From Patescibacteria group bacterium (GTDB lineage: Bacteria; Patescibacteriota; Patescibacteriia; 2-12-FULL-60-25): a stretch of DNA of 64,000 nt. The stretch spans positions 7,210-71,209 of the forward strand of contig JBAYJJ010000001.1 of assembly GCA_041665165.1 (NCBI GenBank), written 5' to 3'. This document shows, one piece after another, positions 28,124 through 62,410 of this stretch. A program made the translations under genes and the position numbers. The notes below the pieces were generated by a model that was not told the origin of the DNA, searched no databases, and saw nothing but the letters and a program-made list of their open reading frames with translations. Numbering within the stretch: position 1 is the stretch's first letter; every line of letters starts with the position of its first letter.

Positions 28124-30358
28124 TTAAATTTCGCTGACCAAAACCTCCAAAGTTGATTTGGCCATGTCCTCAAAACTATTTTGCTTCATGTTTTGCCCTG
28201 ATATAGAGTTCTGGGCTTGCAAAGCCTCAACCCAGGCCCGCTGGTCCAGATAAGGCAAGACCTTTACGCATCCAGGAAACAATTCAGCGGTTTCAGGATT
28301 GCCTCCGCGATCGCTCACCAAGCAAAATAGATTTTTAGAAACCGCCTCGACTACCACATGCGGAAAACCTTCATAGCCAGACGGCAAAACAAACACATCC
28401 GCGGCTGTGTACCATTTTGCCATTTGGTCCCTGGAGACACGGCCTAAAAACTTGACCCGATTGGAAACGTTTTTCGTTTCTGCAGAGTGTTTCAGATCTT
28501 CCAGCAAGGGGCCGTCGCCAGCCACGATAAGTATATAGTCGCTCGGCAAATCAGCGATGCATGAAACCAAAAAATCAACGTTCTTCCAAGGCACTGCCCT
28601 GACAGCAGTCAAGATCGCTTTTTTGCCGACAAGGCCGAACTCTTGCCTTATCTGCTCGCGGTCTGCGGTCAAAGCCAAAGGCGCAATGCTGTTGTAAATG
28701 ACTTTGATCTTGTCTGGCTTTACTCCCCACTTTTCCACGATTGTCTTCAAGTATTTGCTCGGCACAATCACAGCATCAGACCTTTTTGCCACAAATCTCT
28801 CAATCCCTTCCAAAATCCTGATGCTTCCTGAATGTTTGTGCGCGACAAACTCATCCAACAATTCTAATTTACGTCCTGCGTCGCTCGTCCCACGTCCTGC
28901 GTCAGTTTGATACTTTTCCCAAGCTTGGTCGCCGACGACTTTGATGACAAAACGGACGTTGCGGAGACGCGCGGCAAAATACGCCGGAAGACCGTCTGAG
29001 GCCGCACCCATGGCATATACTACATCCGCGCCTTTGACCTGTTTATAGACTTCCTTGAAAAACCGCCAAAACCTTAGTGCGGATTTGCGCCCAATCCTGA
29101 TGACTGGAAACTCTGTGTTGGTTTTTTCCGGCCTGTCTCCATATGCAACTACAAATGGAGCGTGCCCTATTTTCACAAGCTCTGTTGAAAAGCCTTTGAC
29201 ATATCCAGCTGGCCCGCCAATATCCGGCGGATAAATGCTGGAGGCAAACACAATCCTTTTTTGCGCAGCAAGCTTATCCCAAAGCGTATGGTATTTTGAG
29301 ATACAGGCTGCCCAATCGAAGTTCTCGGCGAATAACTGACCCTCTTTGCCCATTTGTTCTGCGAGTTGTTGGTCGTTGAGCAAAGTGATTAATTTCTCGG
29401 CCGCGGCCTGGTAATCATCGCGTTCGACGAGATAACCAGTCTTGCCATCAATCAATGCTTCTGGGATTCCGCCGACCCTTGTTGCTACTGTCGGCAAACC
29501 CGCAGCCGCGGCCTCAAGCAAAACAATACCTTGACCTTCGCCGCGCGACAAAAGCGAGAAGACAGAGCCTGTACGCAACACGCGCATTGCACCTTCATGA
29601 TCTTTTTTGCCGGTGAATGTCACTTTCTCAGAACAGCCCTGATCTTTTGCAAGCTGCTCAAGTGATGATTGCTCATCACCGTATCCGACCAAGTAGAGCT
29701 CTGCTTGCGGAACTTGTTTCAAGACCAGTGCAAAAGCTTTTATCAGACAGTCCACGCCTTTTTCTTTGGAGTAGCGCGCAATGCACACGATGCGATTTGG
29801 AGTTTTTTGTTCAGGAAGATTCTTGACCAAGTTCAAATCAACGCCATTGGGGATGACCTCGACATTACCGCCACCCCTGATCTTAAGTGCGCGATTTGCC
29901 AAAAATTGGCTGATGGCCGTGACTTCATCTGGCACGGTGTGGATTTTTTCCCAAAGCCAACTCATGGGCCATTTTCTCAATTTAGGATCTTCATCCAAAT
30001 TGCCGCTTTGCAAAGTCAGGACTGCACGGATTTTCGGTCTCAGCCATTTGATCAAAATCAAACCCATGGCCGCATGGCTTTCCATGACTGCATGCACGAT
30101 TTGCGGCTTGAGCTTCAAAACCGGGATTACGCACAAAAACGGATATAGAAACTTATCGAAAAGATGCCCTACCCCAACCCGGATAATAAGCACCCCATTG
30201 TCATTTTCGCGCCTGGCCAGGCTCCTGTCCCTAAGGCCGGCTATGACCACAATCTGCCTGTCGCCATGCCTGTCTGCCAGCTCCTGGACGCATAATTCAG
30301 CCCCGCTGATGAAGGGCTTATAGAACGTGGTTAAGATGACAATCGGACTTTTTTGCAT
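28124..30358 (-). CDS. Two-module GT4 glycosyltransferase
   Basis: 744 aa. Module 1 carries ...LLSRGEGQGIVLLEAAAAGLPTVATRVGGIPE and module 2 carries ...LPSGYEGFPHVVVEAVSKNLFCLVSDRGGNPE (two EX7E-type motifs). The modules are joined by a linker that carries a heptamer array. Confidence 0.75.
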   Translation of the reverse strand: MQKSPIVILTTFYKPFISGAELCVQELADRHGDRQIVVIAGLRDRSLARRENDNGVLIIRVGVGHLFDKFLYPFLCVIPVLKLKPQIVHAVMESHAAMGLILIKWLRPKIRAVLTLQSGNLDEDPKLRKWPMSWLWEKIHTVPDEVTAISQFLANRALKIRGGGNVEVIPNGVDLNLVKNLPEQKTPNRIVCIARYSKEKGVDCLIKAFALVLKQVPQAELYLVGYGDEQSSLEQLAKDQGCSEKVTFTGKKDHEGAMRVLRTGSVFSLLSRGEGQGIVLLEAAAAGLPTVATRVGGIPEALIDGKTGYLVERDDYQAAAEKLITLLNDQQLAEQMGKEGQLFAENFDWAACISKYHTLWDKLAAQKRIVFASSIYPPDIGGPAGYVKGFSTELVKIGHAPFVVAYGDRPEKTNTEFPVIRIGRKSALRFWRFFKEVYKQVKGADVVYAMGAASDGLPAYFAARLRNVRFVIKVVGDQAWEKYQTDAGRGTSDAGRKLELLDEFVAHKHSGSIRILEGIERFVAKRSDAVIVPSKYLKTIVEKWGVKPDKIKVIYNSIAPLALTADREQIRQEFGLVGKKAILTAVRAVPWKNVDFLVSCIADLPSDYILIVAGDGPLLEDLKHSAETKNVSNRVKFLGRVSRDQMAKWYTAADVFVLPSGYEGFPHVVVEAVSKNLFCLVSDRGGNPETAELFPGCVKVLPYLDQRAWVEALQAQNSISGQNMKQNSFEDMAKSTLEVLVSEI
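28869..28903. repeat. Degenerate heptamer tandem array inside a CDS linker
   Basis: Plus-strand units are TTACGTC CTGCGTC GCTCGTC CCACGTC CTGCGTC. On the coding strand these read GACGCAG GACGTGG GACGAGC GACGCAG GACGTAA and encode TDAGRGTSDAGRK between the two GT modules. Confidence 0.7.
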
Positions 30359-30413
30359 ATTTTAGCCAAAAATCAGGCTTTAGCTTGAACTTATTCTACA
30401 GCCAATTAAGCGA

Positions 30414-30442
30414 AAAATACACTAGATTGCGCAATTAATCAA
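30414..30442 (-). promoter_or_regulatory. Possible promoter for the large glycosyltransferase operon
   Basis: On the minus strand: TTGATT (30442-30437), a 17-nt spacer, then TATTTT (30419-30414). Confidence 0.35.
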
Positions 30443-32041: not shown

Positions 32042-32045
32042 AGGA

Positions 32046-32073
32046 AACAAAAAAGCCGCGAGAAGTTGCGGCT
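32046..32073 (-). terminator. Rho-independent terminator overlapping the stop codon
   Basis: Stem AGCCGCG/TGCGGCT (32054-32060 / 32067-32073). On the minus strand it is followed by TTTTTGTT. The stop codon of the 32072 gene lies inside the stem. Confidence 0.6.
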
Positions 32074-32773
32074 ACGATTCCAGCAGATGCGCCATATATT
32101 GGCGCATCTTTTCGAGATCAGCGAGGTGACCCTTGTCCGTGTAAGTCAGGCGCCGATCGACTTCGGCCTCAGCGGTCTTGACCAACCCGTCGATCCCCGA
32201 GGCGTATCCGGACTGTTTGTGGAGCTCGGAGGCGGCCTTGATCTGCGATCCGATGCCCGTGTCCACCAGCAACGGATAAATCCGCGGAAGCGGCAGACGC
32301 GCCTCGTCGAAGAGCTCAATGCAAGCCTGGATGAACGTGAGATATGAGCGCGGCGTATGCCACGAACCGCCGGTCTGCAGAACTATGCCAGTGGGCGGCT
32401 CGGCGACCAACCTCTTGGCCGCATTCATGGACTGCATGCGTGCGTGGTTTCCGACTTCGTCGGCTTCGATGCGGAAAAAGGGTGGATGAGCGACACCGCC
32501 AACAGCGGCCCACAACTTGTTAATGAGCTCTTTGTTGTACAATTCGCCCTTTTCCCTCTCCTCGGGATTGGTGCCAGTACAGATGAAGCGCTTGGCTTGA
32601 ACACGTTCTGCACACTTAAGCGCCTGGGATACTCGATTGCGCTCAAACACACCAGGCATGACCACCAAAATTTCCGCCCGGCGAATCGTGTTCGCATGAG
32701 TCATAAGGCACATAAGCAAACCGTCGATGATGGCGAGATCTTTCAAGGCCTTGAATTCGGCTTCTGTAGACAT
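32072..32773 (-). CDS. Hypothetical protein, weakly DUF218-like; G+C-rich single gene
   Basis: The start at ATG 32773 is preceded by GAAGGAGG, 6 nt upstream; the track start at 32818 is less likely. It has its own consensus promoter. ILVVMPG...EADEVGNHARMQSMNAAK...LQTGGSWHTPRSYLTF loosely follows the DUF218 pattern. A hand count on 32161-32220 gives 37/60 G+C. Confidence 0.55.
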   Translation of the reverse strand: MSTEAEFKALKDLAIIDGLLMCLMTHANTIRRAEILVVMPGVFERNRVSQALKCAERVQAKRFICTGTNPEEREKGELYNKELINKLWAAVGGVAHPPFFRIEADEVGNHARMQSMNAAKRLVAEPPTGIVLQTGGSWHTPRSYLTFIQACIELFDEARLPLPRIYPLLVDTGIGSQIKAASELHKQSGYASGIDGLVKTAEAEVDRRLTYTDKGHLADLEKMRQYMAHLLES

Positions 32774-32816
32774 CTTGTACCTCCTTCTGGTTGATGGGTC
32801 GAAACAGCGATTCCGC

Positions 32817-32845
32817 ATTTAAGCACTGTTTTTAAGGTTTGTCAA
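32817..32845 (-). promoter_or_regulatory. Sigma70-type promoter of the 32072-32773 gene
   Basis: On the minus strand: TTGACA (32845-32840), an exact 17-nt spacer, then TTAAAT (32822-32817). Confidence 0.5.
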
Positions 32846-32913: not shown

Positions 32914-34101
32914 ATGGACCAAAAAGGCCTGACAATGATCCTGGTCACGAGCCAGGATTGGGGCGGCGTACAAGCCTATGTTTTGGATTTGGCTCTGGCT
33001 CTAAAGTCACGGGGTTTGCCGGTGATTGTTTGTGCAGGAAGACCCGAGAAGTTAGAAGTTAGAAGTTTGAAGTTAGACGTAGGACGAGAACTGGGCGATA
33101 AATGTCTAGAAGCAGGAATTGAGTTTATCGAGTTAAAAAGAATGATCCGTGACATTAACCCGATCTCAAATACGCGCGCTTTATTTGAATTGATCTCTTT
33201 GTTTAAAAAACATCAGCCGCATACAGTCCACTTGAACTCCAGCATGATGGGCGCAGTCGGATCTTTGGCAGCAAGAATCGCTGGTATTCAGCGCGTTGTA
33301 TATTGCATTGGCGGCTGGGCATTCAATGAGCAGATCTCCAGCTGGAAAAAAAGTCTTTACATAACAATCGAAAAAATCTCAGCGCGCTGGAAAGATGTGA
33401 TCATCTGCGTACACCCTGGCGATGAAAAACTGGCGTTGGACATAAAAATCAAACCGCGCGAAAAAGTCATGACCATCCCAAATGGCATTGACGTCAACTT
33501 ATTCCAATCTCAACTTCGTGATCGCGAAACCGCGCATTCGTTGTTAGCTGAACGATGTACGATGTACGATGTACGATGTACGGTTGTTGGCACGGTCGCC
33601 AATTCTTATCCACCGAAAAATCTTTTTTGGTATCTTGAAGTGTGCAAAACAATCACAGACAAGCACCCTGATTTCAAATTCGTGATTATCGGAGATGGCC
33701 CGCAGTTTGAAGAGTTGAAAGCCAAGCATGCGTCTCTGAATCTACAAGACAAGGTGATTCTGACAGGCCGCTTTGAATCAAAACTGCTTTACACGGCTTT
33801 TGATATTTCTGTCTTGCCTTCAACCAAAGAAGGCATGCCACTTGCAGTCTTAGAATCCATGGCTGCCAAAGTCCCCTGCGTCGTGACTGACGTCGGCGGG
33901 TGCAGATGGATGCTGCAGGACGAACAAGGCAGCGCTGGACTCGTGATCCCGCCAAACGACGACAAAGCCCTTGAGCAAGCTATCGAAAAACTTGCGTCAA
34001 ATTCCCTATTACGCCAAGAATTAAGCCAGCGCGCCTACAACCTAGTCACTGAGAAATTTAACTTGCAGGACACTCTGAACAAAACAATTGAAACACTGTG
34101 A
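32914..34101 (+). CDS. GT4 glycosyltransferase carrying two in-frame heptamer arrays
   Basis: 395 aa. MILVTSQDWGGVQAYV (an alternative start at 32935 is possible), then ...LPSTKEGMPLAVLESMAAKVPCVVTDVGG (EX7E). Two low-complexity inserts, KLEVRSLKLDVGRE and ERCTMYDVRCTVVG, are encoded by period-7 DNA. Confidence 0.8.
   Translation: MDQKGLTMILVTSQDWGGVQAYVLDLALALKSRGLPVIVCAGRPEKLEVRSLKLDVGRELGDKCLEAGIEFIELKRMIRDINPISNTRALFELISLFKKHQPHTVHLNSSMMGAVGSLAARIAGIQRVVYCIGGWAFNEQISSWKKSLYITIEKISARWKDVIICVHPGDEKLALDIKIKPREKVMTIPNGIDVNLFQSQLRDRETAHSLLAERCTMYDVRCTVVGTVANSYPPKNLFWYLEVCKTITDKHPDFKFVIIGDGPQFEELKAKHASLNLQDKVILTGRFESKLLYTAFDISVLPSTKEGMPLAVLESMAAKVPCVVTDVGGCRWMLQDEQGSAGLVIPPNDDKALEQAIEKLASNSLLRQELSQRAYNLVTEKFNLQDTLNKTIETL
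33048..33089. repeat. Heptamer array, 6 units (42 nt, in frame)
   Basis: GAAGTTA GAAGTTA GAAGTTT GAAGTTA GACGTAG GACGAGA. Confidence 0.8.
33552..33586. repeat. Heptamer array: (ACGATGT)x4 perfect plus one degenerate unit
   Basis: ACGATGT ACGATGT ACGATGT ACGATGT ACGGTTG, inside the GT4 coding frame. Confidence 0.85.
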
Positions 34102-34123: not shown

Positions 34124-34151
34124 AGTTACAAGTTACGAGCTACGAGTATTA
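34124..34151. repeat. Heptamer array in a spacer, reaching the stop codon of the convergent gene
   Basis: AGTTACA AGTTACG AGCTACG AGTATTA. The last unit contains the TAA (34149-34151, minus strand) of the Wzy_C-TPR gene. Confidence 0.7.
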
Positions 34152-36643: not shown

Positions 36644-39600
36644 TTAGTTGCTCAATGAAGCGCTCGATGAGAGGTCTTCGACGTTGACGTCGTTGGACCA
36701 GTCGCGAGAGATGGTCGAAGGAATGCTACCCACTAATACTGCCGTTGAGGCATGTGGGACTTCCGAGTTGTCTGACCAGACAAACGTACCGAGCTTGAGG
36801 CTTGCACCTGGTGCACCGCCAGCAGCAGATTGATCTAAGTTGAAGATCGATGTGCTGGAGACAGCGAAGATGCCCGTGCTCTTGGTTGACAAGTAGCCAG
36901 TGACCACCGGGGCCGTTGGGTCGCGGTAGAATGAAGTGGTTACGTTGTTACCAGTGCCAGTGTAGGCCACAGTGGCGCGGAGCGAATAGATATTGCCCGA
37001 GCCGCTGATTGAATCCTCACCAGTGAAAGCAACGATAGCCTTAAAGCTGTTGACGCCAGCTTGGGTCTCCTGCTGCGCTGCCTTGATATCCGTGGCCGAA
37101 GTTGAGTTCACGATTGTGTACTCACCGGTCGGGACCAAGGTTGAGCCGCGATACAACCTGAATGAGCTCAAGCCCACGTTGGCTGACTTGGAGATGTTGA
37201 ACACCATCTGTTTCAAGGCAATGGAACCGGCTGAATCAGCGCCCACCTGAGCGCGATAGAGTTCGAGTTCACCGGCCGAGAGAACAGTGTTGGTCAAGTT
37301 CTGCTTGGTGACAACAGGCTTTGTCTTGCGGATGACCTGGGTGTTGCCAGCTGCTGCGCCTGAAGCTGCGTACACGCGCTCACCAGACGAAACGCCTGTG
37401 GTGCGGATGTTGAGCTTGGAAGCATAGTTGGTATCCCATTCACCAGTCTGCAAGTTGTCGCGGATGCCGATGCCAGGAGCATGGCCAGAGCGAGCCACAT
37501 TGGTGGTTGCGCCGTTGACCGAAGATGATGGCGAGACATTGGAAAGCTTGGCCCACAATTCAAAGTTGGTCGAGCTATCCTTAAGAACCGTGAACTCATT
37601 GCCTGTTAAATCAATGTCCACGCTGCCAATTGCGCCAGACGATAATACGTTGGAGCTCTTGATTGCGCCGCCTGTAGCTATGCCGATGGCTACGAAGTCT
37701 GCGTTATCGCCGCCGGTGGTCGAGCTGACCGTGATGCGATCGATCTGCATGTCTTCGTACTGAGCTGTAGCCTTATAGCGAGCAAACGGTACCCAGACGT
37801 CCTTACCAGCCACGACGATTGAAGTGGAAGGATGAGCGTCAGCAGACACCGTAATGTTACCCTTGGACAAGATTGTGGTGTAGACAGAAGGAGCGGCGCC
37901 CAACTGAGTGGTCTTCAAAGCGGTTGAAACGCTTGCAGTCACTGTGTTGGCGTCGTCGTCCTGAGCTGTGATATCACCGTTTGCAGCAATACCGACTTCA
38001 ACCTTGTCAAACGGTGCCGTTGTAGCTGCCGTTGAGGTGAAGGTGGCTTTGACTGTCAAATCCTTGGTCGTGCCCTTGAGAACCTTCAAATTCATGTTTG
38101 TGATTTGTGCGGTTCCAAGAGTCGTGTCCGGAGCCTTGGCAATACCGACTTGCGTGGCGCCATCCCACAGGGAGAGCGAAGCAACGCGGCTTACGCAAGA
38201 ACCAACGGCATAAGCCACACCAGCCAAGCTAGCCTTACAAGTCAAGGTCAGGTTAGTGATCGTGACATCAGACTGAGCACCGGCTGAGAGGGAAATGCCG
38301 ACTACTGACTTATTGATGGACTTTTTAACCACAGTGGCTGACACCGGGTTAGAGGCCAAATCAGCAGTCAAACTGGATGACTTGATGGTTTGCACGTTAC
38401 CAGCTGTTGAAGCATTCGGGACGATCTTGGTGATATCCAGGCTTTCACCAGTGGATACGACCTTGACATCGCCAGCGATGAACGGGCTGAAAGTAGCCTT
38501 GTACTTGTGCGTGCCATTCAAGTAGAACTCGTTGATTACATCTTCAGTGTTAGAGAGGTCAGCGGCCAGAGCCAAATTTAAGGTCGTGCCAGCCTTCAGG
38601 GTGAAGGTGTCATTGAAGACCAAAGCCTCGCTGGTTGAAGAAGCTGCCGAGGTCAATTCCTTGGGACCCATTATTGTTGCGCCCGTATCAAGATTATAAA
38701 TCTTGATGTTGCGGAAGTACTTTGTGCTGGCTGAGCCTACGATCAAGTCGTTGGCTGAGTTGCCGGCCAAAGTAAAGCGCAGATAGCGGATTTCCAAATC
38801 ATTGTCAGCAGATGTGAGTGCGAACTTGTAGAACGGAACTGACAATTTGCCCTTGGCTACGTTAGCCGACGGAGGACCGTTGAAAGCAAATGACAAGTTG
38901 CCGCCCTGAGTTGTGACTGATACGCCCTCAGCTGAAGTATCGAACGCAGAAATCGTGATGCTTGCACCTGAGTTATAGACAGTGTCTGTGGCGTTGATAT
39001 CAGCAGCGTACTCAATGTAGGTAACGATTGTGCGACCAGAGCGGCCAGCCACATCGCCACGGAGTGAGAATACGCGCGTCACACCATTCGGGATGAGATA
39101 CGCAGTGTCGAAAGTGAGCACGATCTGGCCCTTGGCATTGATCGAAGCGGCAGAAGCCACCTTGGTCGAACCCTGGTACAGTTCAAAGTTGCTCAAATCC
39201 GAGTTGTCCACCGTGCCGCCCTGATACAGAGCCACGCGGTTGACGCGGATATCATTGGTGTTGGCTGTGAGTTTGAAGCTTGAGATCTCAACATTCTTGG
39301 AACCGATGACCGGGTTGGCCGGGGTCGGGCCTGGTTGAATGGTGAGTGTGCCGGCCGATGAAGCACCGATGACAAACACATTGCCGCGGACCGGGAAAGA
39401 ACCCGAGACCGTGCCTGTGCCTGTGAGCACTACACTGGCTGCATCAACCAATTCGAAAGCATGATTGCCTCCGGTTACGGTTGGGCTGTTGAAGTCAGCA
39501 TAAACATAGTATGACTTCATGCCTCCAGCCGGAATCGTGACGTTCAACGAGTTGAACTCAGTGACATTGGTGGTGGCATTTACCGAGCGGCCCGTGGTTA

Positions 39601-40519
39601 AACGGTTGCCGTCCTGGTCATACAAGTAGACGTTGGCGAAATCTGAAGTTGAACCGACACCTACGCGATGGAAGCGCATGCCGGAGACCAAAGCGTCAGC
39701 ACTGCCGGCAGTCAAGTTGACCTTGACCATCGGGACGCCCATGGCGTTCTTCGGAACTGTTGCGCCAGACGGGGTATCAGAGGCCAAGGCCACTGTTACG
39801 CTGCCGTTGACTGAAGTTGAACCGCTGCCGCATGAAACGGACCAGAAGTTATCAGCTTCCAAGCCAGTCACGTCTGCACCGTCAGGATACGAGATCGTGG
39901 TGGTGATGACATTGATGGCATTGAACTTGTTGTCTGTTAAAGCAGTACCAGCAAGCTTGCGCTTCTGTCCATTCATTACTACGTAGCGATTTGCATCGCC
40001 GGCATAGGTAACGAGCGAACCATCCGGGTGGACGTTCGATGAGACTGAAGCACCAGTCGTGTAGTTGACGAAGAATGAATCAGGCACGTCGATGACGCGC
40101 GTGGCCCAAGCATCTCCATAGAGGGCCTTGGCAATGGCTTCGGATTCGATCCAATGCAAGGTTCCGCACTTGGTGACGGCATAGGTCTTAGGGTCTGTGG
40201 TGATCTTCACGAGCTTGGTGCCCGGGCGGACCGTCACATTGCCCCCAATCATGATGGCAGCGAGTTCTGCATCTGTAATTGTTTTAACAGCTGAGAAATC
40301 GTTATACCAAGAGAAGTACGTCTTTTCATCTGGGAAAACATAGCGTTTTCCATCGGTGGCGTAGAAGTACACTGCTGGACCCGAAGCCTTGATCAAGTCG
40401 CCATTTACTAAAGTGGCTGCCTGAGCTGAGACTGGGAAAGCTAATGCACCGGCTCCGACTGACCAAAGAATGGTCACGAAAGAGACGACCGCGGAAAAGA
40501 CTTTCTTTAATGAATTCAT
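36644..40519 (-). CDS. Giant secreted surface protein (S-layer/adhesin-like, S/T/A/G/V/N-rich)
   Basis: 1291 aa. Has an N-terminal signal peptide MNSLKKVFSAVVSFVTILWSVGAGALAFPVSAQA and no other hydrophobic segments. Beta-rich repetitive modules are of the type (...SGATV...VKVNLTA..., ...FKLTAN..., ...FALTSAD...). It is moderately G+C-rich (33/60 on 37081-37140). Confidence 0.8.
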   Translation of the reverse strand: MNSLKKVFSAVVSFVTILWSVGAGALAFPVSAQAATLVNGDLIKASGPAVYFYATDGKRYVFPDEKTYFSWYNDFSAVKTITDAELAAIMIGGNVTVRPGTKLVKITTDPKTYAVTKCGTLHWIESEAIAKALYGDAWATRVIDVPDSFFVNYTTGASVSSNVHPDGSLVTYAGDANRYVVMNGQKRKLAGTALTDNKFNAINVITTTISYPDGADVTGLEADNFWSVSCGSGSTSVNGSVTVALASDTPSGATVPKNAMGVPMVKVNLTAGSADALVSGMRFHRVGVGSTSDFANVYLYDQDGNRLTTGRSVNATTNVTEFNSLNVTIPAGGMKSYYVYADFNSPTVTGGNHAFELVDAASVVLTGTGTVSGSFPVRGNVFVIGASSAGTLTIQPGPTPANPVIGSKNVEISSFKLTANTNDIRVNRVALYQGGTVDNSDLSNFELYQGSTKVASAASINAKGQIVLTFDTAYLIPNGVTRVFSLRGDVAGRSGRTIVTYIEYAADINATDTVYNSGASITISAFDTSAEGVSVTTQGGNLSFAFNGPPSANVAKGKLSVPFYKFALTSADNDLEIRYLRFTLAGNSANDLIVGSASTKYFRNIKIYNLDTGATIMGPKELTSAASSTSEALVFNDTFTLKAGTTLNLALAADLSNTEDVINEFYLNGTHKYKATFSPFIAGDVKVVSTGESLDITKIVPNASTAGNVQTIKSSSLTADLASNPVSATVVKKSINKSVVGISLSAGAQSDVTITNLTLTCKASLAGVAYAVGSCVSRVASLSLWDGATQVGIAKAPDTTLGTAQITNMNLKVLKGTTKDLTVKATFTSTAATTAPFDKVEVGIAANGDITAQDDDANTVTASVSTALKTTQLGAAPSVYTTILSKGNITVSADAHPSTSIVVAGKDVWVPFARYKATAQYEDMQIDRITVSSTTGGDNADFVAIGIATGGAIKSSNVLSSGAIGSVDIDLTGNEFTVLKDSSTNFELWAKLSNVSPSSSVNGATTNVARSGHAPGIGIRDNLQTGEWDTNYASKLNIRTTGVSSGERVYAASGAAAGNTQVIRKTKPVVTKQNLTNTVLSAGELELYRAQVGADSAGSIALKQMVFNISKSANVGLSSFRLYRGSTLVPTGEYTIVNSTSATDIKAAQQETQAGVNSFKAIVAFTGEDSISGSGNIYSLRATVAYTGTGNNVTTSFYRDPTAPVVTGYLSTKSTGIFAVSSTSIFNLDQSAAGGAPGASLKLGTFVWSDNSEVPHASTAVLVGSIPSTISRDWSNDVNVEDLSSSASLSN

Positions 40520-42530: not shown

Positions 42531-42607
42531 TAAACGCTGAACGCACAACGCTAAACCCTAAACGCGTCGAAGCCTAAGGGTTAAGGGTTAAGCTTTAAGG
42601 GTTAAGC
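42531..42607. repeat. Heptamer array, 11 units in two sub-arrays, immediately upstream of the sigma gene
   Basis: TAAACGC TGAACGC ACAACGC TAAACCC TAAACGC GTCGAAG CCTAAGG GTTAAGG GTTAAGC TTTAAGG GTTAAGC. Confidence 0.8.
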
Positions 42608-42678
42608 TGATTTAGTAGGTCTAGATTGCCAGAAAAACCCATAAATATCAATGCCTAAAGCACTTATTTTGATGATAC

Positions 42679-42722: not shown

Positions 42723-42995
42723 ATGGAAAACTCGCCTATCCGTTTAAGTATTTCCCAGGCCGCACGCCTTTTTGGCATATCTGATCGCACTCTGCGCCGA
42801 GCAATCAGCTCTAACCAAATTAGATATGTAGTCGTGAAAAATCGATATCAACTTAACTTCGAATCCGTGCTGTCTTGGTCACAATCCAAACCCAAAGTTT
42901 TAAATAAACTTGAAAAGCAAGGCATAGGCCAATGGGTGGAGAAGTGGAAGATCAAAAATCCAAAATTCTCTCCTCGTCCGCCCCAAACCAACTGA
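42723..42995 (+). CDS. Small excisionase/MerR-type HTH DNA-binding protein
   Basis: 90 aa. LSISQAARLFGISDRTLRRAISSNQIRY is a helix-turn-helix, and the C-terminal tail is basic. Confidence 0.6.
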   Translation: MENSPIRLSISQAARLFGISDRTLRRAISSNQIRYVVVKNRYQLNFESVLSWSQSKPKVLNKLEKQGIGQWVEKWKIKNPKFSPRPPQTN

Positions 42996-43059
42996 CAACT
43001 CTAAACTTACAACTTACAAGAGCGTTCTGGTTACTCTTGTCAGTTGTACGTTGTCAGTT
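42990..43059. repeat. Inverted pair of heptamer arrays forming a long imperfect hairpin between convergent genes
   Basis: The left array is AACTGAC AACTCTA AACTTAC AACTTAC AAGAG and the right array is CTCTT GTCAGTT GTACGTT GTCAGTT. The reverse complement of the right array (AACTGAC AACGTAC AACTGAC) mirrors the left one. The left array includes the TGA at 42993-42995. Confidence 0.75.
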
Positions 43060-43071
43060 TTTGGTGTTTGA

Positions 43072-46043: not shown

Positions 46044-46155
46044 CAATTAAAAATTCAAAATTGATAATTCAAAATTCAGGAGGCCTTTGGCTTTTATCTG
46101 GTAATCCGCGAAGCGGCACATGAACTTTGAATTTTGCATTTTTAATTTTGAATTA
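46044..46155. repeat. Inverted pair of AT-rich heptamer arrays flanking a 42-nt core
   Basis: The left array (46044-46078) is CAATTAA AAATTCA AAATTGA TAATTCA AAATTCA. The right array (46121-46155) is TGAACTT TGAATTT TGCATTT TTAATTT TGAATTA. TGAATTT is the exact reverse complement of AAATTCA. The right array covers the stop codon and last codons of the 46142 gene. Confidence 0.75.
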
Positions 46156-49765: not shown

Positions 49766-49799
49766 TACGAATTACGAATTTGTATACGAATATACGAAT
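49766..49799. repeat. Four copies of TACGAAT (two in strict 7-nt tandem)
   Basis: TACGAAT occurs at 49766, 49773, 49785 and 49793. The region is also partly palindromic (ACGAATTCGT). Confidence 0.6.
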
Positions 49800-49824
49800 T
49801 CGTTTGCAAAAAAAACGAGGCATA

Positions 49825-50216: not shown

Positions 50217-50244
50217 ATAATTAGAATAAACAAAATTTGCATTC

Positions 50245-50428
50245 TTGTCATTTCGAGCGAAACGAAGTGAAGTCGAGAAATCTCCGAATCCAACGTTACC
50301 AAGTAACTTCAGTTTCCGAGATCTCTCGACTGACGCTCGAGATGACAAAAGGGGGTACAGTCGAGATGACAAGGGGAGGAAATAGTCAAGATGACAAAGC
50401 AGGCGGGGAACCAACTAGCAGCCTGTGG
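50245..50428 (-). repeat. Repeat family A, copy 2 (longest copy)
   Basis: Its reverse complement reads CCACAGGCTGCTAGTTGGTTCCCC...TTGTCATCTTGAC...TTGTCATCTCGAC...TTTGTCATCTCGAGCG...GAGAGATCTCGGAAACTGAAGTTACTTGGTAACGTTGGATTCGGAGATTTCTCGAC...CGCTCGAAATGACAAG. Confidence 0.75.
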
Positions 50429-55217: not shown

Positions 55218-56015
55218 CTAGGATTTGACCGTGATGTAGCCGTGCGGCTTGAGCCAGCGTTCGGTCACGATTGCGTGATTGATGAGGCCGATGATGCCGC
55301 CGGCCAGCGCGCCAATGATGGCATGGTGTGCCATGTAACCAATGGCCGTGCCAAGCATGGCATCCACTCCGCAGATCAAACGCTTCTCCGAATGGATGCG
55401 GATGAACATCTGCCAGGCAAAGCGTTTGCAGAAACGGGCGAGCCCACCCACGGCCCAGGCTATGCTCATGCAAATAGCAATGGCTGCGCCAGGCAATTTG
55501 CGAGCAAACCAGACCAGTGCGCGCGGAATGTGCCAAAAAACCACGACCGGAGGGAAAGTGGCAATTGCGATTTTCCGTACCTTGGGCCAATCATCTTTCA
55601 TGTCCTCATGGACTGTGCTCACAAACAACATCACTGTGAAGATGCACGCGGAAATGGAGAAGGGCAAGATGATGAGGACCTTGAATAAGGGCGACGTATA
55701 TGAAAGGGGCAGTGACTTGAAAATCATTTCAGATGCACACAGGATGGACACCCAAAACATAAAGTTCCAAGTCAAGACGCCCAGCCCAAATGATATCGCG
55801 AAGCCAGGTCTTGGCAGACGGGCTTTTATTGCTGCGCGGAAAGCGTGCGGCACAGCTTGGACCACAGCCTTCCACTCGTATGAGAGATAGCCGACGATTC
55901 CGCCGACCAGCAAACCCACCCACCAGAACCAGTGGCTGAGCTGGAGCGCGACAAGCGACCCGATCCCGGCGCCGAATGCACAAGCCAAAAACACCTTCCA
56001 AGACTCTTTCTGCAT
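55218..56015 (-). CDS. Multi-pass membrane protein of unknown function
   Basis: 265 aa with about 7 hydrophobic segments. The ribosome-binding site AAGGAGGA lies 6 nt upstream of the ATG. No family was recognised. Confidence 0.6.
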   Translation of the reverse strand: MQKESWKVFLACAFGAGIGSLVALQLSHWFWWVGLLVGGIVGYLSYEWKAVVQAVPHAFRAAIKARLPRPGFAISFGLGVLTWNFMFWVSILCASEMIFKSLPLSYTSPLFKVLIILPFSISACIFTVMLFVSTVHEDMKDDWPKVRKIAIATFPPVVVFWHIPRALVWFARKLPGAAIAICMSIAWAVGGLARFCKRFAWQMFIRIHSEKRLICGVDAMLGTAIGYMAHHAIIGALAGGIIGLINHAIVTERWLKPHGYITVKS

Positions 56016-56100
56016 GGCGATCCTCCTTGAGTTGTAGGTACGAAATCAGGAGTATTTAGACTGAAAACAGAAGGGAAGTCAAGTCTGAAACCTGTCCCCA

Positions 56101-56243
56101 CCACAGGCTGCTAGCTAGTTCCACTCCTTTTGTCATCTCGACTGCAGCGGAGCGAAATGGAGAGATCTCGGAAACAGAAGTTACCTGGCCACGTTAGATT
56201 CGGAGATTTCTCGATTACGTCTGACTTCACTCGAAAAGACAGG
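56101..56243 (+). repeat. Repeat family A, copy 3
   Basis: CCACAGGCTGCTAGCTAGTTCC...TTTTGTCATCTCGAC...GAGAGATCTCGGAAACAGAAGTTACCTGGCCACGTTAGATTCGGAGATTTCTCGAT...CACTCGAAAAGACAGG is colinear with the reverse complement of copy 2. Confidence 0.75.
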
Positions 56244-56254
56244 AATGAGGGGCT

Positions 56255-57262
56255 CTATGAATTTCCAAGTATGCTTCTCTTGTAGGACTCGAGGTTCTCA
56301 AGCGCAATGCCTGTGCCTTTGGCCACGCAATATTGGGGCTCATCAGCTACGAAGGCTGGGATGCCTGTGGCCTCGGAAACAATGCGATCAAGATTCCTAA
56401 GTTGAGCTGAGCCACCAGAGAGCACCACGCCCTTTTCCATGACATCAGCCGAAAGCTCTGGCGGCGTGTTGCGCAAAACTTCTTTCATGGTATCGATAAT
56501 GCCTTGGAGCTCATGCTGGATGGCGTCTGTAATATCATCGGAATTGATGCCGACTGTGCGCGGCAAACCAGTGATCATGTCGCGGCCCTTCACATCCATT
56601 TCCAGTTTGTTCTCCAAATACAAGGCTGAGCCGATGCGGATCTTGGCATCTTCAGATGTGCGTTCGCCAATGGCCAAACCATACTTGCGGCGCACATGCT
56701 CTTGGATGGCCAAGTCCATTTTATTGCCTCCAATCCTGACTGAGGCTGAAGAGACAATGCCGCCCAAAGAAATCACAGCGATTTCTGATGTGCCGCCGCC
56801 AATATCTGTAATCATGTGGCCGGACGGTGATCCGATCGGTATATCAGCGCCAATAGCTGCGACGATTGGTTCTTTGATGATATAGGCTGCGCGCGCTCCA
56901 GCCGCGATGGTCGCGTCAATGACAGCGCGGCGTTCAGTTGATGTGATGCCGCCTGGCACTGCGACCATGACCTCGGGGCGGAAAAACCTGACACTGCCCA
57001 AAGCCTTGTTAAGAAAATACCGAAGCATGGCCTCGGTGGTGTGATAGTCGGCGATTACTCCGTCTTTGAGCGGGCGGCGTGCGACAATAGTGTCTGGCGT
57101 GCGCCCAAGCATGTCTTTTGCTTCCTTGCCCACGGCCAGCACGCGCTTGTCAGCCAAAGATATGGCAACAACCGAGGGCTCGTTCATCACAATGCCCTTT
57201 TTCGGGATATAGACCAAAACGGTCGTTGTCCCCAGGTCAATCGCCACCTTTTTGCCAAACAT
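56255..57262 (-). CDS. mreB: Rod shape-determining actin homologue MreB
   Basis: 335 aa. VAIDLGTTTVLVY, NEPSVVA, VMVAVPGGITSTERRAV, ITDIGGGTSEIAVISLGGIV and VLSGGSAQLRNLD form the canonical MreB motif series. Confidence 0.9.
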   Translation of the reverse strand: MFGKKVAIDLGTTTVLVYIPKKGIVMNEPSVVAISLADKRVLAVGKEAKDMLGRTPDTIVARRPLKDGVIADYHTTEAMLRYFLNKALGSVRFFRPEVMVAVPGGITSTERRAVIDATIAAGARAAYIIKEPIVAAIGADIPIGSPSGHMITDIGGGTSEIAVISLGGIVSSASVRIGGNKMDLAIQEHVRRKYGLAIGERTSEDAKIRIGSALYLENKLEMDVKGRDMITGLPRTVGINSDDITDAIQHELQGIIDTMKEVLRNTPPELSADVMEKGVVLSGGSAQLRNLDRIVSEATGIPAFVADEPQYCVAKGTGIALENLESYKRSILGNS

Positions 57263-58317: not shown

Positions 58318-60420
58318 CTAGTACTGCACTTCAAACATTCTGTCTTCCAGCGTATCAATTCTATATTCGTAGGCGTTATCTCCCCACTTGGCTTCTGCTT
58401 CGGCTGGGTCTGCTTTTTTGACTGTTGTCGGTAAAATTATTTTGACATCAATCTGAGTGTTGTCTGCGCCCGGTTGCTTGGGCCAATCAAGACGATAGTC
58501 GCCGCTCGTAACGTCCAGCGGCGGAAGTTGATAGGTAAAAGATAATTGACCGCTTTTGCCTGGTTCTATGGCCCAAAAAGCACCGTAGACTGTTTTGCCC
58601 AGCTCTTTCATGACATCTACTTTGCCTGCGACGAAGTTGCCGCCCGTGTTATGCAAATCATCGGCCATGGCGCCTTTGGCTGAAACAAAGGTGCTGCCAT
58701 CAGGTACATAAATGCGTGTGTAACTGCGATAGCGCGTATATCTCCAAGTGGATTGCTTGTTTGTATTCTTATAATTGAATGTGACGGTCGCTACTGGCTT
58801 TTGCGGATCGCGCGCATCCAAAACATATGAGACTGACTTTTGCATTACGCCATCAGTCTTAAGCGCCGCGAGATTCGCATCCACCACCCACAAGAAATCA
58901 CCAAGCGTTGGCTTAGCGCGCCCGCTCCAGCCATATTGATCCAGTTTTTTCTCAACATCCGCATTGCGCGAGTAGATGAGAATCTGCTTGCGGTTCAATG
59001 ACGTGGTCACAAGATCCAATAGCTCTGGCCAGCGCGACTTGGGCATATTTTGGATTTTGGCCATTATGGCCTGACCCACTTCGCCCATAAGCACCTTCCT
59101 ATCTTCGACTGAAATGCCTTGCTTGCCAAAACCGATTTCTACCTGATACTGCAAAGTATCAAAAAAGTTCTGGTCATTATATTCCTGGCCGCGGACATTT
59201 ACCGGCCCGGTTATCTTGAGTAGGGCTTCAAAAAACGCCGGCTCAAAAGCAACATAAACCGTTGGCTCAGAAATCTTGTTTCCAGCCAAGATGTTTTCTC
59301 TGGTATAAAAATCCAATACTTTATCGGCTGAAGTCGGGAAATCCGGCGACCAATTCGCATCGCGCATAAACCAAACTTTTGCCTTGAGATAATCCTGCAA
59401 AGGTTTCGGCGGAATTTCTTTCCAAGTTTGCGCTACTGGATTATCAACTTGATACACATCTGAAAAAACCATGTTCGTCATGTCCCCGCCTGTAACCTTG
59501 GCCGTGAACAAACTTCCGATAAAACCGCCCGAAGGGCGAATCTCGTCCGCATTCTGCAAAGCCACAAGATAATCTTGAGCATCTGGATAGCCAGCCAAAG
59601 GCACCATGACGTCGATCAAAGGAACGGCCTGGGTCAATGATTTTTGCATCACTGGCAAAGCATCAGCCAGTGGTTTCAAAGCTTGCTTGATGGGACCGGC
59701 GATCTGATTTTGCGGCAAAGCATTCCACAACCTGTAGGCCAAATCCATTTTGTCCCTGGCAAGCCTGATGTCTGGCAATGAATTGTATAAAACCCGAAGC
59801 AAGCTTAGTTTATTTTCCGGAGTCAGATCTTTCAGCCTGTCGCTGGGCGAAATCGGCACGCCGAGGCTATTGACTGCCTGCTGGCCAGTTGAAGCTGCAT
59901 CAAAAATCGCTGAAGCGACCTTAAGCAAATCCTCCATGCCTTCCATTGAATCCGCACTCACGACCGAGGCATCCTGCAGAATGCGCAACTGCGACCCTAT
60001 ATATGGGACATCTCTCCAAAAGCCCATGCCATTCAAAGCGACCTCCATGTTATTGAGTTCAAGTTTTGCCTTGGCCGAATACGCTTGGGCAGTGGCCATG
60101 TCCCCGGCCAGCAAAGCTGTCTGCATGTTAGAAAGCGCGACTCGGGCATTGTTGGCTGCCAAGCCAGCTTTAGCCAAAGCTATTCCCGGAGGCACGGTTG
60201 CAATCCCCAGCGCTATCACTAAAAACGCGACCACTATCCAAAAAAGCTTACGCTTCTTCCGCGGATTCGTAGCTCGTAGCTCGTAGCTCGTAGCTCGGTC
60301 TTTGTTTGTCGGCTGTGGTCTGTCGTCTGTGGTCTTAGTGTCGCGAAAAGCGTCCGCTTTGTGTGGCGGTTCGAGCTCGGGCACTCCCGGGCAAGTTAAA
60401 AAATTTGGATGCTCTTTCAT
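58318..60420 (-). CDS. DUF4012-type membrane-anchored protein
   Basis: The ATG at 60420 overlaps the upstream TAA by 1 nt (TAATG); the track start at 60540 overlaps 120 nt. It has one TM segment (LFWIVVAFLVIALGIATV) and then ...AKAGLAANNARVALSNMQTALLAGDMATAQAY..., typical of DUF4012. The N-terminal tail is encoded by a heptamer array. Confidence 0.7.
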   Translation of the reverse strand: MKEHPNFLTCPGVPELEPPHKADAFRDTKTTDDRPQPTNKDRATSYELRATNPRKKRKLFWIVVAFLVIALGIATVPPGIALAKAGLAANNARVALSNMQTALLAGDMATAQAYSAKAKLELNNMEVALNGMGFWRDVPYIGSQLRILQDASVVSADSMEGMEDLLKVASAIFDAASTGQQAVNSLGVPISPSDRLKDLTPENKLSLLRVLYNSLPDIRLARDKMDLAYRLWNALPQNQIAGPIKQALKPLADALPVMQKSLTQAVPLIDVMVPLAGYPDAQDYLVALQNADEIRPSGGFIGSLFTAKVTGGDMTNMVFSDVYQVDNPVAQTWKEIPPKPLQDYLKAKVWFMRDANWSPDFPTSADKVLDFYTRENILAGNKISEPTVYVAFEPAFFEALLKITGPVNVRGQEYNDQNFFDTLQYQVEIGFGKQGISVEDRKVLMGEVGQAIMAKIQNMPKSRWPELLDLVTTSLNRKQILIYSRNADVEKKLDQYGWSGRAKPTLGDFLWVVDANLAALKTDGVMQKSVSYVLDARDPQKPVATVTFNYKNTNKQSTWRYTRYRSYTRIYVPDGSTFVSAKGAMADDLHNTGGNFVAGKVDVMKELGKTVYGAFWAIEPGKSGQLSFTYQLPPLDVTSGDYRLDWPKQPGADNTQIDVKIILPTTVKKADPAEAEAKWGDNAYEYRIDTLEDRMFEVQY
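60267..60336. repeat. Heptamer array, 10 units, inside the DUF4012 coding sequence
   Basis: TCGTAGC x4 (perfect), then TCGGTCT TTGTTTG TCGGCTG TGGTCTG TCGTCTG TGGTCTT. On the coding strand the first block is (AGCTACG)n, the same unit as at 34138. It encodes ...TTDDRPQPTNKDRATSYELRATN.... Confidence 0.85.
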
Positions 60421-61298: not shown

Positions 61299-62356
61299 AC
61301 GAACCAAGGCCGGATTTTCTGCGCCCCCTCAGTGCAGATAGCCTTTAATTCTTTGCGCTTTTTCAGCATTTTTGGCAAACCGGCCAAAGCCGCTCCATAA
61401 CCCTTGAGCGATGACCATGAAAACAGCGCGGCAAGCATCTTACCTATTTCATACGGTAAAATCCAGAGCCCGTGCCATAAAAGGTCAGAAAAAGCCAGGT
61501 TCTTAGCCAAAACCCAGATATGATTGCGGCTCGAAAGATAGGTTACAAAAGCAGGATGCCCAAATCGCTTGAGCCAGACCGTAAAAACATTGGATCTTGG
61601 GCTGGAAGGCACACGGCGGTAGTGCCAGGCTACGGCCTTGGGCACTAAAGCTGATTTCATGCCCATGCGGCGCATGCGCCAAGCCACATCCACGTCTTCT
61701 TTATATGAATGGAAATCTTCATCAAAAAATTGACCATTGAGGCTGGAGCGCACCAAAGCTGAAGCGCGATAAAAAGCACAAGCGCCGGTCGGACCGAAAA
61801 TTTCCATTTCCTTGTCATACTGGCCCTCGTCGATTTGACCGGCTTTATCATCATAAGCGCGGCGCGCTTTTGTCATGTGTATGCCCAGCGAATCAATCAC
61901 ATTTGTTTTCTCTGTTTCTGCCCTGTCGCCAATGCCTGGACGCAAATGCGCCTTCAGAAGTTTTGGCATGGCGCTATCTATTTCCAAGTGGCTGTCCATG
62001 AAGCTGACCAATTCAAATATACAGTTTTGGTCCAGCACGATATCCGGATTGCATATCAAGATATAAGCGCGCGACAGATCTGAATCCTGCAGGCCTGAGA
62101 GAGCGAGTTGGATGGCCTGATTGTGAGCGCGCGTAAAACCATAGTTGCGCATGTTGCGCAAAACAGTCATACCCGGATATTCACTGGTCAGCCACTGCGC
62201 CACCCCATCAGTTGAGGCATTGTCCACCAAAATTATTCTATGCTGTTCGTTTTGGGCTTCAAGGCTTTCAAACAAGGATGGTAAATAAGCCATGGAGTTC
62301 CAGGCTACGATATTCACGGAAAGTCTTAGCTGATCCATATCTATTTCATGTAACAT
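61295..62356 (-). CDS. GT2 glycosyltransferase (rhamnosyltransferase-like)
   Basis: 353 aa. LSVNIVAWNS...IILVDNASTDG...NYGFTRAHNQ...ILICNPD. Confidence 0.8.
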   Translation of the reverse strand: MLHEIDMDQLRLSVNIVAWNSMAYLPSLFESLEAQNEQHRIILVDNASTDGVAQWLTSEYPGMTVLRNMRNYGFTRAHNQAIQLALSGLQDSDLSRAYILICNPDIVLDQNCIFELVSFMDSHLEIDSAMPKLLKAHLRPGIGDRAETEKTNVIDSLGIHMTKARRAYDDKAGQIDEGQYDKEMEIFGPTGACAFYRASALVRSSLNGQFFDEDFHSYKEDVDVAWRMRRMGMKSALVPKAVAWHYRRVPSSPRSNVFTVWLKRFGHPAFVTYLSSRNHIWVLAKNLAFSDLLWHGLWILPYEIGKMLAALFSWSSLKGYGAALAGLPKMLKKRKELKAICTEGAQKIRPWFV

Positions 62357-62410
62357 GTATCATATAACATATATCATCCGTCATGTTACATGTTGCGTGT
62401 TACATGTTTC
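62348..62410. repeat. Heptamer array, 9 units, spanning a gene junction
   Basis: ATGTAAC ATGTATC ATATAAC ATATATC ATCCGTC ATGTTAC ATGTTGC GTGTTAC ATGTTTC. It covers the start codon of the 61295-62356 gene, the 29-nt spacer, and the stop and last codons of the 62386-63903 gene. Confidence 0.8.

Follow-up and report, generated by a model that had tools for sequence, protein, structure and literature searches.

Tandem heptamer arrays in a Patescibacteria polysaccharide locus and its relatives: probable long-unit simple-sequence repeats with rapid turnover

Short tandem arrays of 7-nt units recur along a 64,000-nt stretch of a genome of the Patescibacteria, or Candidate Phyla Radiation (CPR) (GenBank assembly GCA_041665165.1, contig JBAYJJ010000001.1, positions 7,210 to 71,209; hereafter the window). 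The stretch comprises a cell-surface polysaccharide gene cluster, as judged from crude open reading frame (ORF) calls, and the MreB-centred loci of species-representative genomes place its host near "Ca. Uhrbacteria". We consider it probable, at roughly 0.6, that the arrays are hypermutable long-unit simple-sequence repeats (SSRs), with a unit of 7 nt here and of 7-9 nt across the clade. They are probably in the main a mutational or selfish by-product and not a dedicated regulatory device, and the mechanism behind them is most likely the ordinary instability of repeats, not a new molecular system.

To detect the arrays, we used a scan of the match/mismatch autocorrelation type with score thresholds of at least 10 and at least 12 and with third-order Markov shuffles as controls. 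In the window, nine period-7 arrays reached the lower threshold (0.1 expected) and seven the higher one (0.0 expected), and weaker period-7 arrays are present besides the nine strong ones. The remaining periods within the range of 4-21 yielded 0-2 arrays each. A comparison of this kind had been named beforehand as a check on a first-pass annotation of the sequence; period 7 was in excess and the neighbouring periods were not, which confirmed that the period-7 arrays are real and far above chance. Tandem Repeats Finder likewise returned period-7 (or 14) arrays at 28872, 33047, 33552, 34123, 42531, 42575, 42989, 46045, 46121, 60267, 60307, 62347 and 62382. The individual arrays, with folding energies compared to shuffled sequence as z-scores, are:

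28869..28903, minus strand: coding array GACGCAG GACGTGG GACGAGC GACGCAG GACGTAA in a double GT4 glycosyltransferase gene (28124-30358, minus), encoding DAGRGTSDAGR.
33047..33090, plus strand: coding array at hot spot 1 of the GT4 gene 32914-34101, with three AGAAGTT and one TGAAGTT followed by GACGTAG GACGAGA; it contains the polymorphic site 33075.
33549..33582, plus strand: coding array at hot spot 2 of the same GT4 gene, 4.4 perfect copies of ACGATGT, encoding ERCTMYDVRCT immediately ahead of the conserved VGTVANxYPPKN motif.
34124..34147, no strand assigned: intergenic array AGTTACA AGTTACG AGCTACG AG in the spacer between the convergent GT4 and Wzy-like genes, without a significant fold.
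42531..42608, no strand assigned: two adjoining arrays, five TAAACGC-like units and 4.6 units of TAAGGGT/TAAGCTT, in the divergent spacer and 5' end between a gene for an extracytoplasmic function (ECF)-type sigma factor (41956-42546, minus) and a helix-turn-helix gene (42723-42995, plus); the arms starting at 42531 and 42575 are only weakly complementary (fold z -0.8).
42989..43060, no strand assigned: inverted pair of four CAACTGA-like and three TCAGTTG-like units that separates convergent genes and folds into a long hairpin (-26.3 and -28.7 kcal/mol, z -4.8 and -5.8, for the two strands).
46045..46154, no strand assigned: inverted pair of 4.9 AATTCAA and 4.9 TGAATTT units around a 42-nt core, in the spacer of two co-directional minus-strand genes (fold z -2.4).
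49766..49799, no strand assigned: self-complementary TACGAAT/ATTCGTA array with mixed 7- and 8-nt spacing, followed by an A8/T8 run (fold z -2.4).
60267..60335, minus strand: two coding arrays, four units of GACCACA/GACGACA and then 4.4 of GCTACGA, in the cytoplasmic N-terminal tail of a DUF4012 protein, encoding TKTTDDRPQPT...RATSYELRAT; the true start of the DUF4012 gene is at 60420.
62347..62413, no strand assigned: inverted pair forming a hairpin, 4.4 units of CATGTAA/CATATAA and 3.9 of CATGTTA/CGTGTTA (z -3.3 and -4.4), covering the stop codon of a 505-aa gene and the spacer upstream of a GT2 gene.

Arrays in the window thus lie at the 3' ends of genes, between genes and within genes. The first-pass annotation had described loci with 4-11 heptamers in a strict 7-nt period. 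The arrays exist as described, but single ones hold about 3.5-5 units, and 11 is reached only when adjacent arrays are merged (42531 with 42575, 60267 with 60307); the strict period does not hold at 49766-49799, which mixes two spacings and is itself palindromic. The relations between unit sequences had been described correctly: AGCTACG is present at 34138 and, in the other orientation, within the minus-strand (GCTACGA)n array at 60267, and GACGNAG, found at 33076, has a minus-strand counterpart at 28869-28903. Overlooked at that stage was that three of the loci, 42989/43039, 46045/46121 and 62347/62382, are inverted pairs, and that arrays in coding regions change by a 21-nt, three-unit step.

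All sequence data used here are metagenome-assembled genomes (MAGs) or metagenome assemblies, and the contigs from the same species amount to a handful. The ENA and JGI contigs (L001, L082, L083, L091, L092 and L093) match the window arrays base for base in every overlap examined, except for an indel at 33075. An assembly or sequencing artefact, which could be suspected as every dataset is a metagenome assembly, is refuted for practical purposes: the NCBI MAG, the ENA assembly and the JGI contigs hold identical arrays, the arrays are shorter than one read and keep the reading frames, and arrays are also found in many independent MAGs of other species.

The indel at 33075 is a change by whole units. 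Over 21,188 aligned bases, the ENA contig L082, which covers window positions 22914-44101, differs from the window by this 21-nt indel alone, with 0 substitutions. The longer allele, in L082, adds GACGTAG GACGTGG GACGAGC and hence the residues DVGRGTS, and the JGI contig L083 carries the same allele; the other same-species overlaps that we examined were identical to the window. The heterogeneity in unit number that the first-pass annotation had proposed to look for therefore exists, in the form of this three-unit indel. An exact look-up of the short allele returned no record, and a metagenome scan for more alleles returned two loci only, both distant.

Between species, the arrays turn over much faster than the sequence that flanks them. 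The sister species, represented by L002 and L086 from one MAG, is 84-91% identical to the window, and about 10 of the 22 indels of at least 5 nt between the two fall at array sites. At the DUF4012 site, the window has four GCTACGA units where L002 has four of GTCACAA, within nearly identical flanks. The 28869 site in the GT4 gene shows the same behaviour, with GACGNNG units in the window compared to AACGCNN (AACGCAC AACGCTG AAGGCAC...) in L086 at the same codon position, between nearly identical protein flanks. In place of the 62.35-kb hairpin, L002 has an unrelated single CGTAGCT array. The arrays at 33047, 33552 and 34124 are missing from L086, where the entire 34124 spacer is absent and the convergent genes overlap. 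Other close species pairs exhibited one-unit differences, and the coding differences were, by inspection, 21 nt; between L016 and L020, a period-9 pair has been replaced wholesale by a period-7 pair. Arrays accordingly change by whole units, by one in spacers and by three (21 nt, 7 aa) in genes.

As 7 is not a multiple of 3, a single-unit change could switch a gene, which raises the possibility that the arrays are contingency loci. According to this explanation, gain or loss of units in coding or 5'-proximal arrays would turn surface-polysaccharide genes such as GT4 and DUF4012 on or off, and three-unit changes would vary the encoded peptide, either of which would diversify the surface of an episymbiont. 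The location fits, since arrays occur in glycosyltransferase, Wzy-neighbouring and DUF4012 genes of the surface polysaccharide cluster. So do two perfect 4.4-copy tracts and the unit-number polymorphism in an otherwise identical background, and phase variation by heptanucleotide SSRs takes place elsewhere, for example at the H. influenzae SSR locus studied in PMC12721329. However, the sole polymorphism is in frame (three units), and an out-of-frame allele was not found in the few assemblies compared. As tracts comprise no more than 4-5 units and are for the most part degenerate, they would be expected to slip at low rates. Housekeeping spacers contain arrays just as often, the density outside genes is about 11-fold that within them, and several genes carry 2-5 arrays, which would be odd for a switch. 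Two candidates for switched-off genes were also rejected. The split orthologue P0076 in L087, apparently a long-read MAG, is interrupted at non-array positions, probably by long-read errors, and a presumed frameshifted 'off' variant of a glycosyltransferase in L088 turned out to be intact, as tblastn placed the P0056 gene in one frame over residues 4-395 and the called start was merely late. SSR contingency loci and the CPR arrays are alike in being hypermutable repeats in or near genes for surface structures (here GT4, GT2 and DUF4012) with within-species polymorphism in unit number. The former, however, rely on long perfect tracts and out-of-frame switching, whereas the CPR tracts consist of 4-5 mostly degenerate units (no tract in the window exceeds 4.4 perfect units), change in frame and are spread genome-wide. 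Switching by unit gain or loss is therefore, in our view, unlikely to be what the arrays are for, and the same holds for a role in varying the surface through the peptide.

The genic arrays have in common that they are retained solely where the protein tolerates them, in a tail or in loops, namely in the DUF4012 tail and at the two GT4 hot spots. The DUF4012 arrays encode part of the cytoplasmic tail directly ahead of an RKKRK stretch and a transmembrane segment. The orthologues begin with a conserved MKExPNFLTCPxVPELPPP head; the tail behind it is hypervariable in all relatives, and peptides derived from arrays are frequent there. Both arrays of the GT4 gene 32914-34101 coincide exactly with the two length-variable places among 40 CPR homologues: hot spot 1, after 'CAGxx', ranges from 0 to about 130 aa and hot spot 2, before 'VGTVANxYPPKN', from 0 to about 45 aa, and related peptides appear at the GT4 hot spots in several species. 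Genic arrays measure 17-47 nt. Three heptamers correspond to seven codons read across all three frames, so a period-7 repeat in DNA cannot arise from selection for a repeated peptide.

Hot spot 1 accommodates other insertions as well. In other species (L087 2700-2900 of the L009 genome; P0021, P0027, P0029 and P0034), in-frame palindromic insertions such as CCGCCATAGGCGGATCCGCCTATGGCGG are present at this place, and so are repeated peptides such as SPLVKEGHSMQSIES. The palindromic insertions are a case of tolerance for hairpin DNA within an ORF as known from Rickettsia palindromic elements, which are dispersed palindromes of about 100-150 bp. These elements had been proposed as a precedent for the arrays; the analogy holds for a tolerated in-frame insertion of repeat DNA at permissive sites of genes and ends there, since the CPR coding arrays are short, tandem and non-palindromic, with an inverted partner in 0 of 45 genic period-7 cases.

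The heptamer arrays are characteristic of the lineage and occur in most related Patescibacteria species. For comparison, we collected the loci of 80 species (1.38 Mb), about 20 of them with 92-99% MreB identity and 60 more distant, and found 115 period-7, 42 period-8 and 61 period-9 arrays, with neighbouring periods far rarer. The density of period-7 arrays per 100 kb was 14 in the window, 12.4 in the close relatives and 6.8 in the distant CPR relatives, while a 50-kb O-antigen/colanic-acid region of E. coli contained none. When the intergenic arrays of window and relatives (1.44 Mb) were counted by period, the numbers were 0 for period 5, 4 for 6, 73 for 7, 30 for 8, 21 for 9, 3 for 10, 7 for 11 and 3 for 12. 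The spectrum hence has an abrupt onset at 7, and certain species prefer 8 or 9. Period-9 arrays are chiefly genic (40/61), and 19 of them belong to one G/C-rich genic cluster. The arrays are also not confined to the polysaccharide cluster, because three more lie around rplJ/rplL within the 9.9 kb past the right end of the window (genes for ribosomal L10 and L7/L12, TsaD and ExoVII) and seven more in a further 20 kb of the L009 genome.

In addition, five period-7 and five period-9 arrays were present in 20 kb of L085 (JGI12316J15310_10000155), a 165-kb contig with a distant GT4 match of 27% identity. Unusually long arrays were encountered at L029 9081-9206 (15.7 perfect copies of GATGGAGT), L023 13464-13532 (7.6 perfect copies of GGTCTGTCA) and L089 18306-18376 (about 10 copies of ACCAATT), and these three would be the best candidates for copy-number polymorphism. 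Two further analyses of the units led to little. Clustering of the 7-mers into unit families was dropped, as single linkage chains everything and is uninformative. A single hypervariable column per unit had only a modest effect (0.61 compared to 0.51 in simulations, p = 0.014), which is accounted for by the duplication of units that have already mutated.

The arrays are strongly biased towards spacers. Intergenic sequence makes up 13% of the DNA yet holds 59% of the period-7 and 71% of the period-8 arrays, an approximately 11-fold higher density than in coding sequence. The type of spacer did not matter: with 1.17 arrays per kb in convergent, 0.95 in divergent and 0.85 in co-directional spacers, the densities were equal (chi-square p = 0.41). 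By a strict criterion, an inverted partner within 150 nt was present for 16 of 73 period-7, 14 of 30 period-8 and 9 of 21 period-9 intergenic arrays, and inverted partners outnumbered direct ones 39 to 8 (binomial p = 5.5e-6). Compared to shuffled sequences, the pairs at 42989/43039, 62347/62382 and 46045/46121 and the palindromic array at 49766 had better folds; no such excess was observed in this test for the coding arrays, the array at 34124 or the 42531/42575 arrays.

The paired arrays could be functional RNA or DNA hairpins that act as terminators resembling repetitive extragenic palindromic (REP) sequences, as mRNA stabilisers or as processing sites, with the tandem arms reflecting merely how they are built. 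Significant stability was observed for the window pairs and for a homologous hairpin in L016 and L020 (fold z -7.1 and -5.5). In the latter, 5 of 23 stem pairs differ between the two species on both sides and 0 are broken, and one dinucleotide change is repeated 7 nt apart and mirrored in the opposite arm, so that compensatory changes have been retained. Moreover, some of the hairpins are located between convergent genes or ahead of T/A runs. On the other hand, inverted pairs are as common in divergent spacers (8/19) as elsewhere. In the spacer orthologous to that at 62.35 kb, a tandem-armed hairpin occurs in 3 of 20 species (the window, L016 and L020), most of these spacers being 5-25 nt long, so hairpins are absent from most orthologous spacers. 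A comparison of coordinates showed that the terminator-like sites listed by a terminator scan coincide with no array hairpin, and the best-scoring canonical GC-rich terminators sit in other spacers. Many intergenic arrays are also without a detected partner, and genic arrays are never paired. Given the divergent spacers, the hairpin-free orthologous spacers and the negative terminator scan, the data lend no support to a dedicated function in termination or regulation, and we regard functional hairpins as a rather improbable explanation for the arrays.

A related possibility is that the pairs are small mobile elements comparable to miniature inverted-repeat transposable elements (MITEs) or REPINs, paired REP sequences that form hairpins. 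Such elements would be non-autonomous and spread by a transposase, and the repeats in the arms would be iterated transposase-binding sites. In favour of this is an element of about 90 nt in L006 and L009, with at least five copies that consist of (GTCNTAAC)4, an A/C-rich loop of about 20 nt, (CGTTANGA)3 and a TTCCCTAA tail. It occurs in both orientations, at 1630-1870, 11630-11760 and 13080-13220 of L006 and at 10990-11130 and 11590-11730 of L009. A period-9 family (AAAGTTYAT / ACTTTAYAA) is likewise present at several sites in L006, L009 and L016, the wholesale exchange of a hairpin for one of another period between L016 and L020 would fit transposition, and the L009 genome encodes a Y1 transposase similar to the REP-associated tyrosine transposases (RAYTs). 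However, each pair in the window has its own unit and no dispersed family was seen there, target-site duplications are not evident in the flanks of the dispersed L006/L009 copies, and no transposase was found among the scanned window ORFs. The RAYT-like gene is accompanied by GTAG-type inverted repeats of its own that are not tandem-armed, and mobility would leave the unpaired and the coding arrays unexplained. We thus consider it quite unlikely that such elements account for the arrays.

The RAYT-like gene itself (L089 13229-14100 of the L009 genome; 195 aa, Pfam Y1_Tnp E = 1.9e-6) contains the HUH-like motif MPNHIHGII and is flanked by inverted GTAGGGATAACCC...GGTTATCCGTAC repeats, a classical REP/RAYT unit within a CPR polysaccharide cluster. 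REP sequences, bacterial interspersed mosaic elements (BIMEs) and REPINs resemble the CPR arrays in being extragenic imperfect palindromes, as are three clear pairs and one palindromic array in the window. Several dispersed copies exist of the period-8 and period-9 hairpins in L006 and L009, but not in the window, where the units are all different. REP/REPIN elements carry a conserved GTAG or CGTC head (PMC3733652). By inspection, no such head is present at the ends of the CPR arrays, whose arms are moreover tandem-periodic; the repeats that flank the Y1_Tnp gene in L089 are of the different, non-tandem GTAG type.

Finally, a 7-bp period is familiar from protein-binding sites, since the proteins of omega/ParG-type systems recognise 7-bp units arranged in tandem, either directly or inverted. 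Both the period and the two orientations would fit operators for omega-type ribbon-helix-helix repressors or partition sites. Nearly every locus has a different unit, though, rather than a single heptad consensus, and dozens of cognate proteins would consequently be needed in a small genome. No tandem WATCACW occurred in 1.5 Mb, and the arrays lie inside ORFs and are turned over between sister species. It is therefore very unlikely that the arrays are heptad operators.

A separate type of repeat was also noticed. The intergenic motif TTGTCATTTCGA(A/G)CG (reverse complement CGCTCGAAATGACA) is dispersed in many species (the window, L005, L007, L018 and L002), often in inverted copies with GTGAGAAATCTCC, and looks like a separate family of repeat elements. 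In the window (49830-49900 and 50337-50398) it flanks a small GIY-YIG nuclease gene (49983-50414, minus), where it includes 2.5 copies of a 25-nt tandem repeat, TCGAGATGACAAAAGGAGGAAACAG. Directly downstream of this gene lies the block 49740-49860, which is formed by the TACGAAT array and a following GACGCC...GGCGTC hairpin. This block is about 99% identical to L002 17000-17120, compared to about 75% for the flanking genes; Rfam gave no credible match for it, and L002 was the only one of the fetched loci to contain it. The spacers beside MreB also contain insertions relative to the sister species, one of 176 nt at about 56083-56259, which includes a CGAGAAATCTCC motif, and one of 55 nt at about 55177, which is a GC-rich hairpin (CCCCTCCTCAACTGAGGAGCGGG).

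Taken together, the changes by whole units and the exchange of units in concert suggest slipped-strand mispairing in which arrays contract and expand repeatedly. In this scenario, arrays would arise and be resized by slipped-strand mispairing or unequal exchange, and repeated rounds of contraction and re-expansion would homogenise their units; such concerted evolution would explain why sister species have different units at the same site. The complementarity of paired arms may be kept by intrastrand template switching in quasi-palindromes, by weak selection on the stem, or by both. Purifying selection would then remove arrays that break a reading frame or a folded domain. Length-variable peptides in surface-polysaccharide proteins and hairpins in transcripts would be side effects.

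Several observations weigh against this explanation by unstable SSRs. The 21-nt module GACGTAG GACGTGG GACGAGC (DVGRGTS), or its unit family, recurs across genes and species, namely in the GT4 allele at the window locus, in the second GT4 gene at 28869 and in the DUF4012 tails of L009 and L006, a recurrence that would not be expected from slippage acting only locally. In L006 and L009, the hairpins of period 8 and 9 are dispersed copies whose loops are related and whose tail is shared, a pattern suggestive of mobility. The abrupt onset at 7 nt is without a demonstrated mechanistic cause. Growth by single units from one to four copies in genes would require out-of-frame intermediates, and none were seen. 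The within-species polymorphism rests on one observed case, and the loci of the relatives were all centred on MreB, so most of the sampled DNA represents the same type of neighbourhood. A repair deficit through loss of Exonuclease VII is not supported either, as xseA and xseB are both present beside the window (L091 1432-2898), about 7-8.5 kb past its right end.

Alternatively, the arrays could stem from a dedicated, lineage-specific process instead of ordinary slippage, for instance the tandem writing or copying of 7-9-nt units, also onto the opposite arm, by some enzyme or element. Such a process would draw at many sites on preferred modules, GACGTAG-GACGTGG-GACGAGC among them, and the resulting 7-residue blocks in GT4 loops and the DUF4012 tail would diversify the cell-surface machinery of the episymbiont. 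We give this little credence; if true, it would be a system of a new type for generating repeats or diversity, and it could also account for heptamers of the cyanobacterial type in other phyla.

Unstable SSRs with heptameric units are not without precedent, and the statement of the first-pass annotation that no standard feature class explains the arrays was too strong: they are long-unit SSRs. In cyanobacteria, tandem repeats of heptamers are a long-standing observation, to which Xanthomonas and Beggiatoaceae were added later; there is no accepted origin or function for them. The short tandemly repeated repetitive (STRR) sequences of cyanobacteria have the units CCCCAGT (STRR1), TTGGTCA (STRR2) and CAACAGT (STRR3), and the comparison drawn with them was well chosen, as the CPR arrays are likewise tandem and mainly intergenic. 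Our literature search returned no report of such repeats in CPR/Patescibacteria genomes; its coverage was incomplete, so this is an absence of evidence only. In terms of sequence, 1.5 Mb contained no tandem STRR1-3, TAACTGA, GGGAATC or GGGGAYT. The CPR arrays thus behave like known heptamer repeats, while the units themselves indicate that they are not members of these families.

The cyanobacterial STRR and the Nostoc GGGGAYT heptamers, for which about four units are common (PMC4692102), share with the CPR arrays the tandem 7-nt units, the strong enrichment, the mostly intergenic position and the lineage-characteristic occurrence. They reuse a few fixed units at many loci, however, in arrays that are often perfect and can be long, whereas the CPR arrays have their own degenerate unit at almost every locus, are frequently paired in inverted orientation and reside in a non-cyanobacterial host. 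In Xanthomonas, heptameric GGGAATC SSRs are in excess in intergenic regions, the adjacent genes differ from one related species to another, and there are occasional inverted pairs that could form stem-loops (Rehm et al. 2015, PMC4692102). Intergenic heptamers at non-conserved sites with inverted pairs are thus common to both; there, however, a single G-rich unit has been read in terms of G-quadruplexes, while the CPR units are diverse and mostly not G-rich, and the CPR arrays are also tolerated in ORFs, with 21-nt steps. The TAACTGA repeats of Beggiatoaceae, cyanobacteria and Bacteroidetes occur in 2-6 copies in many intergenic regions, mostly a few nt upstream of start codons and almost never inverted (MacGregor 2015, PMC4679880). 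As intergenic direct heptamer repeats that extend to ribosomal-protein operons, they resemble the CPR arrays, and CAACTGA at 42989 is the window unit nearest to theirs. They have one exact unit, in contrast to the many units, the lack of preference for a spacer type and the frequent inverted pairs in CPR. Poorly conserved tandem arrays that have been reported in CPR genomes are the tandem interspaced guide RNA (TIGR) arrays of TIGR-Tas systems, with 36-nt units, two spacers and long arrays beside a Nop-domain Tas gene (PMC12045711). The arrays described here are not TIGR arrays: their units are 7 nt in 3-5 copies, and no Nop-domain (Tas) gene was found among the window ORFs scanned.

As CPR genomes are tiny, their units diverse and G-quadruplex motifs absent, these findings suggest that the preference for 7 nt reflects a general mechanistic constraint and not a sequence-specific function. 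With many closely related MAGs at hand, the birth of repeats, their concerted evolution and the compensation between arms can be traced site by site. The arrays are a source of length variants in surface-polysaccharide enzymes and also of mis-annotated starts, stops and protein tails. Being the fastest-changing sites of these genomes, they can serve as strain markers.

With regard to the gene content of the window, the first 28 kb consist of tightly packed operons with NeuB, aminotransferases and an ABC exporter. Beyond 28 kb follow many GT4/GT2 glycosyltransferases, two Wzy-like proteins, the DUF4012 protein and MreB, and also the ECF-type sigma factor together with a DUF5667 protein. Rfam gave no family at the gathering threshold anywhere in the window and nothing credible at 49.6-50.5 kb. 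The 653-aa ORF at 47733-49694 (+) has no Pfam match and lies in a GC-rich stretch (62%, compared to about 48% elsewhere). ORFs similarly placed downstream of MreB in relatives, such as L008 17292-19154, contain long period-9 G/C-rich repeats of the CCTGCTGTT type; their orthology with the 653-aa ORF is not established. Four further ORFs without a Pfam match, all on the minus strand, encode 1291 aa (36644-40519), 505 aa (62386-63903), 248 aa (32072-32818) and 265 aa (55218-56015), and relatives seem to have counterparts of the genes for the 1291-aa and 505-aa products, which would thus be conserved.

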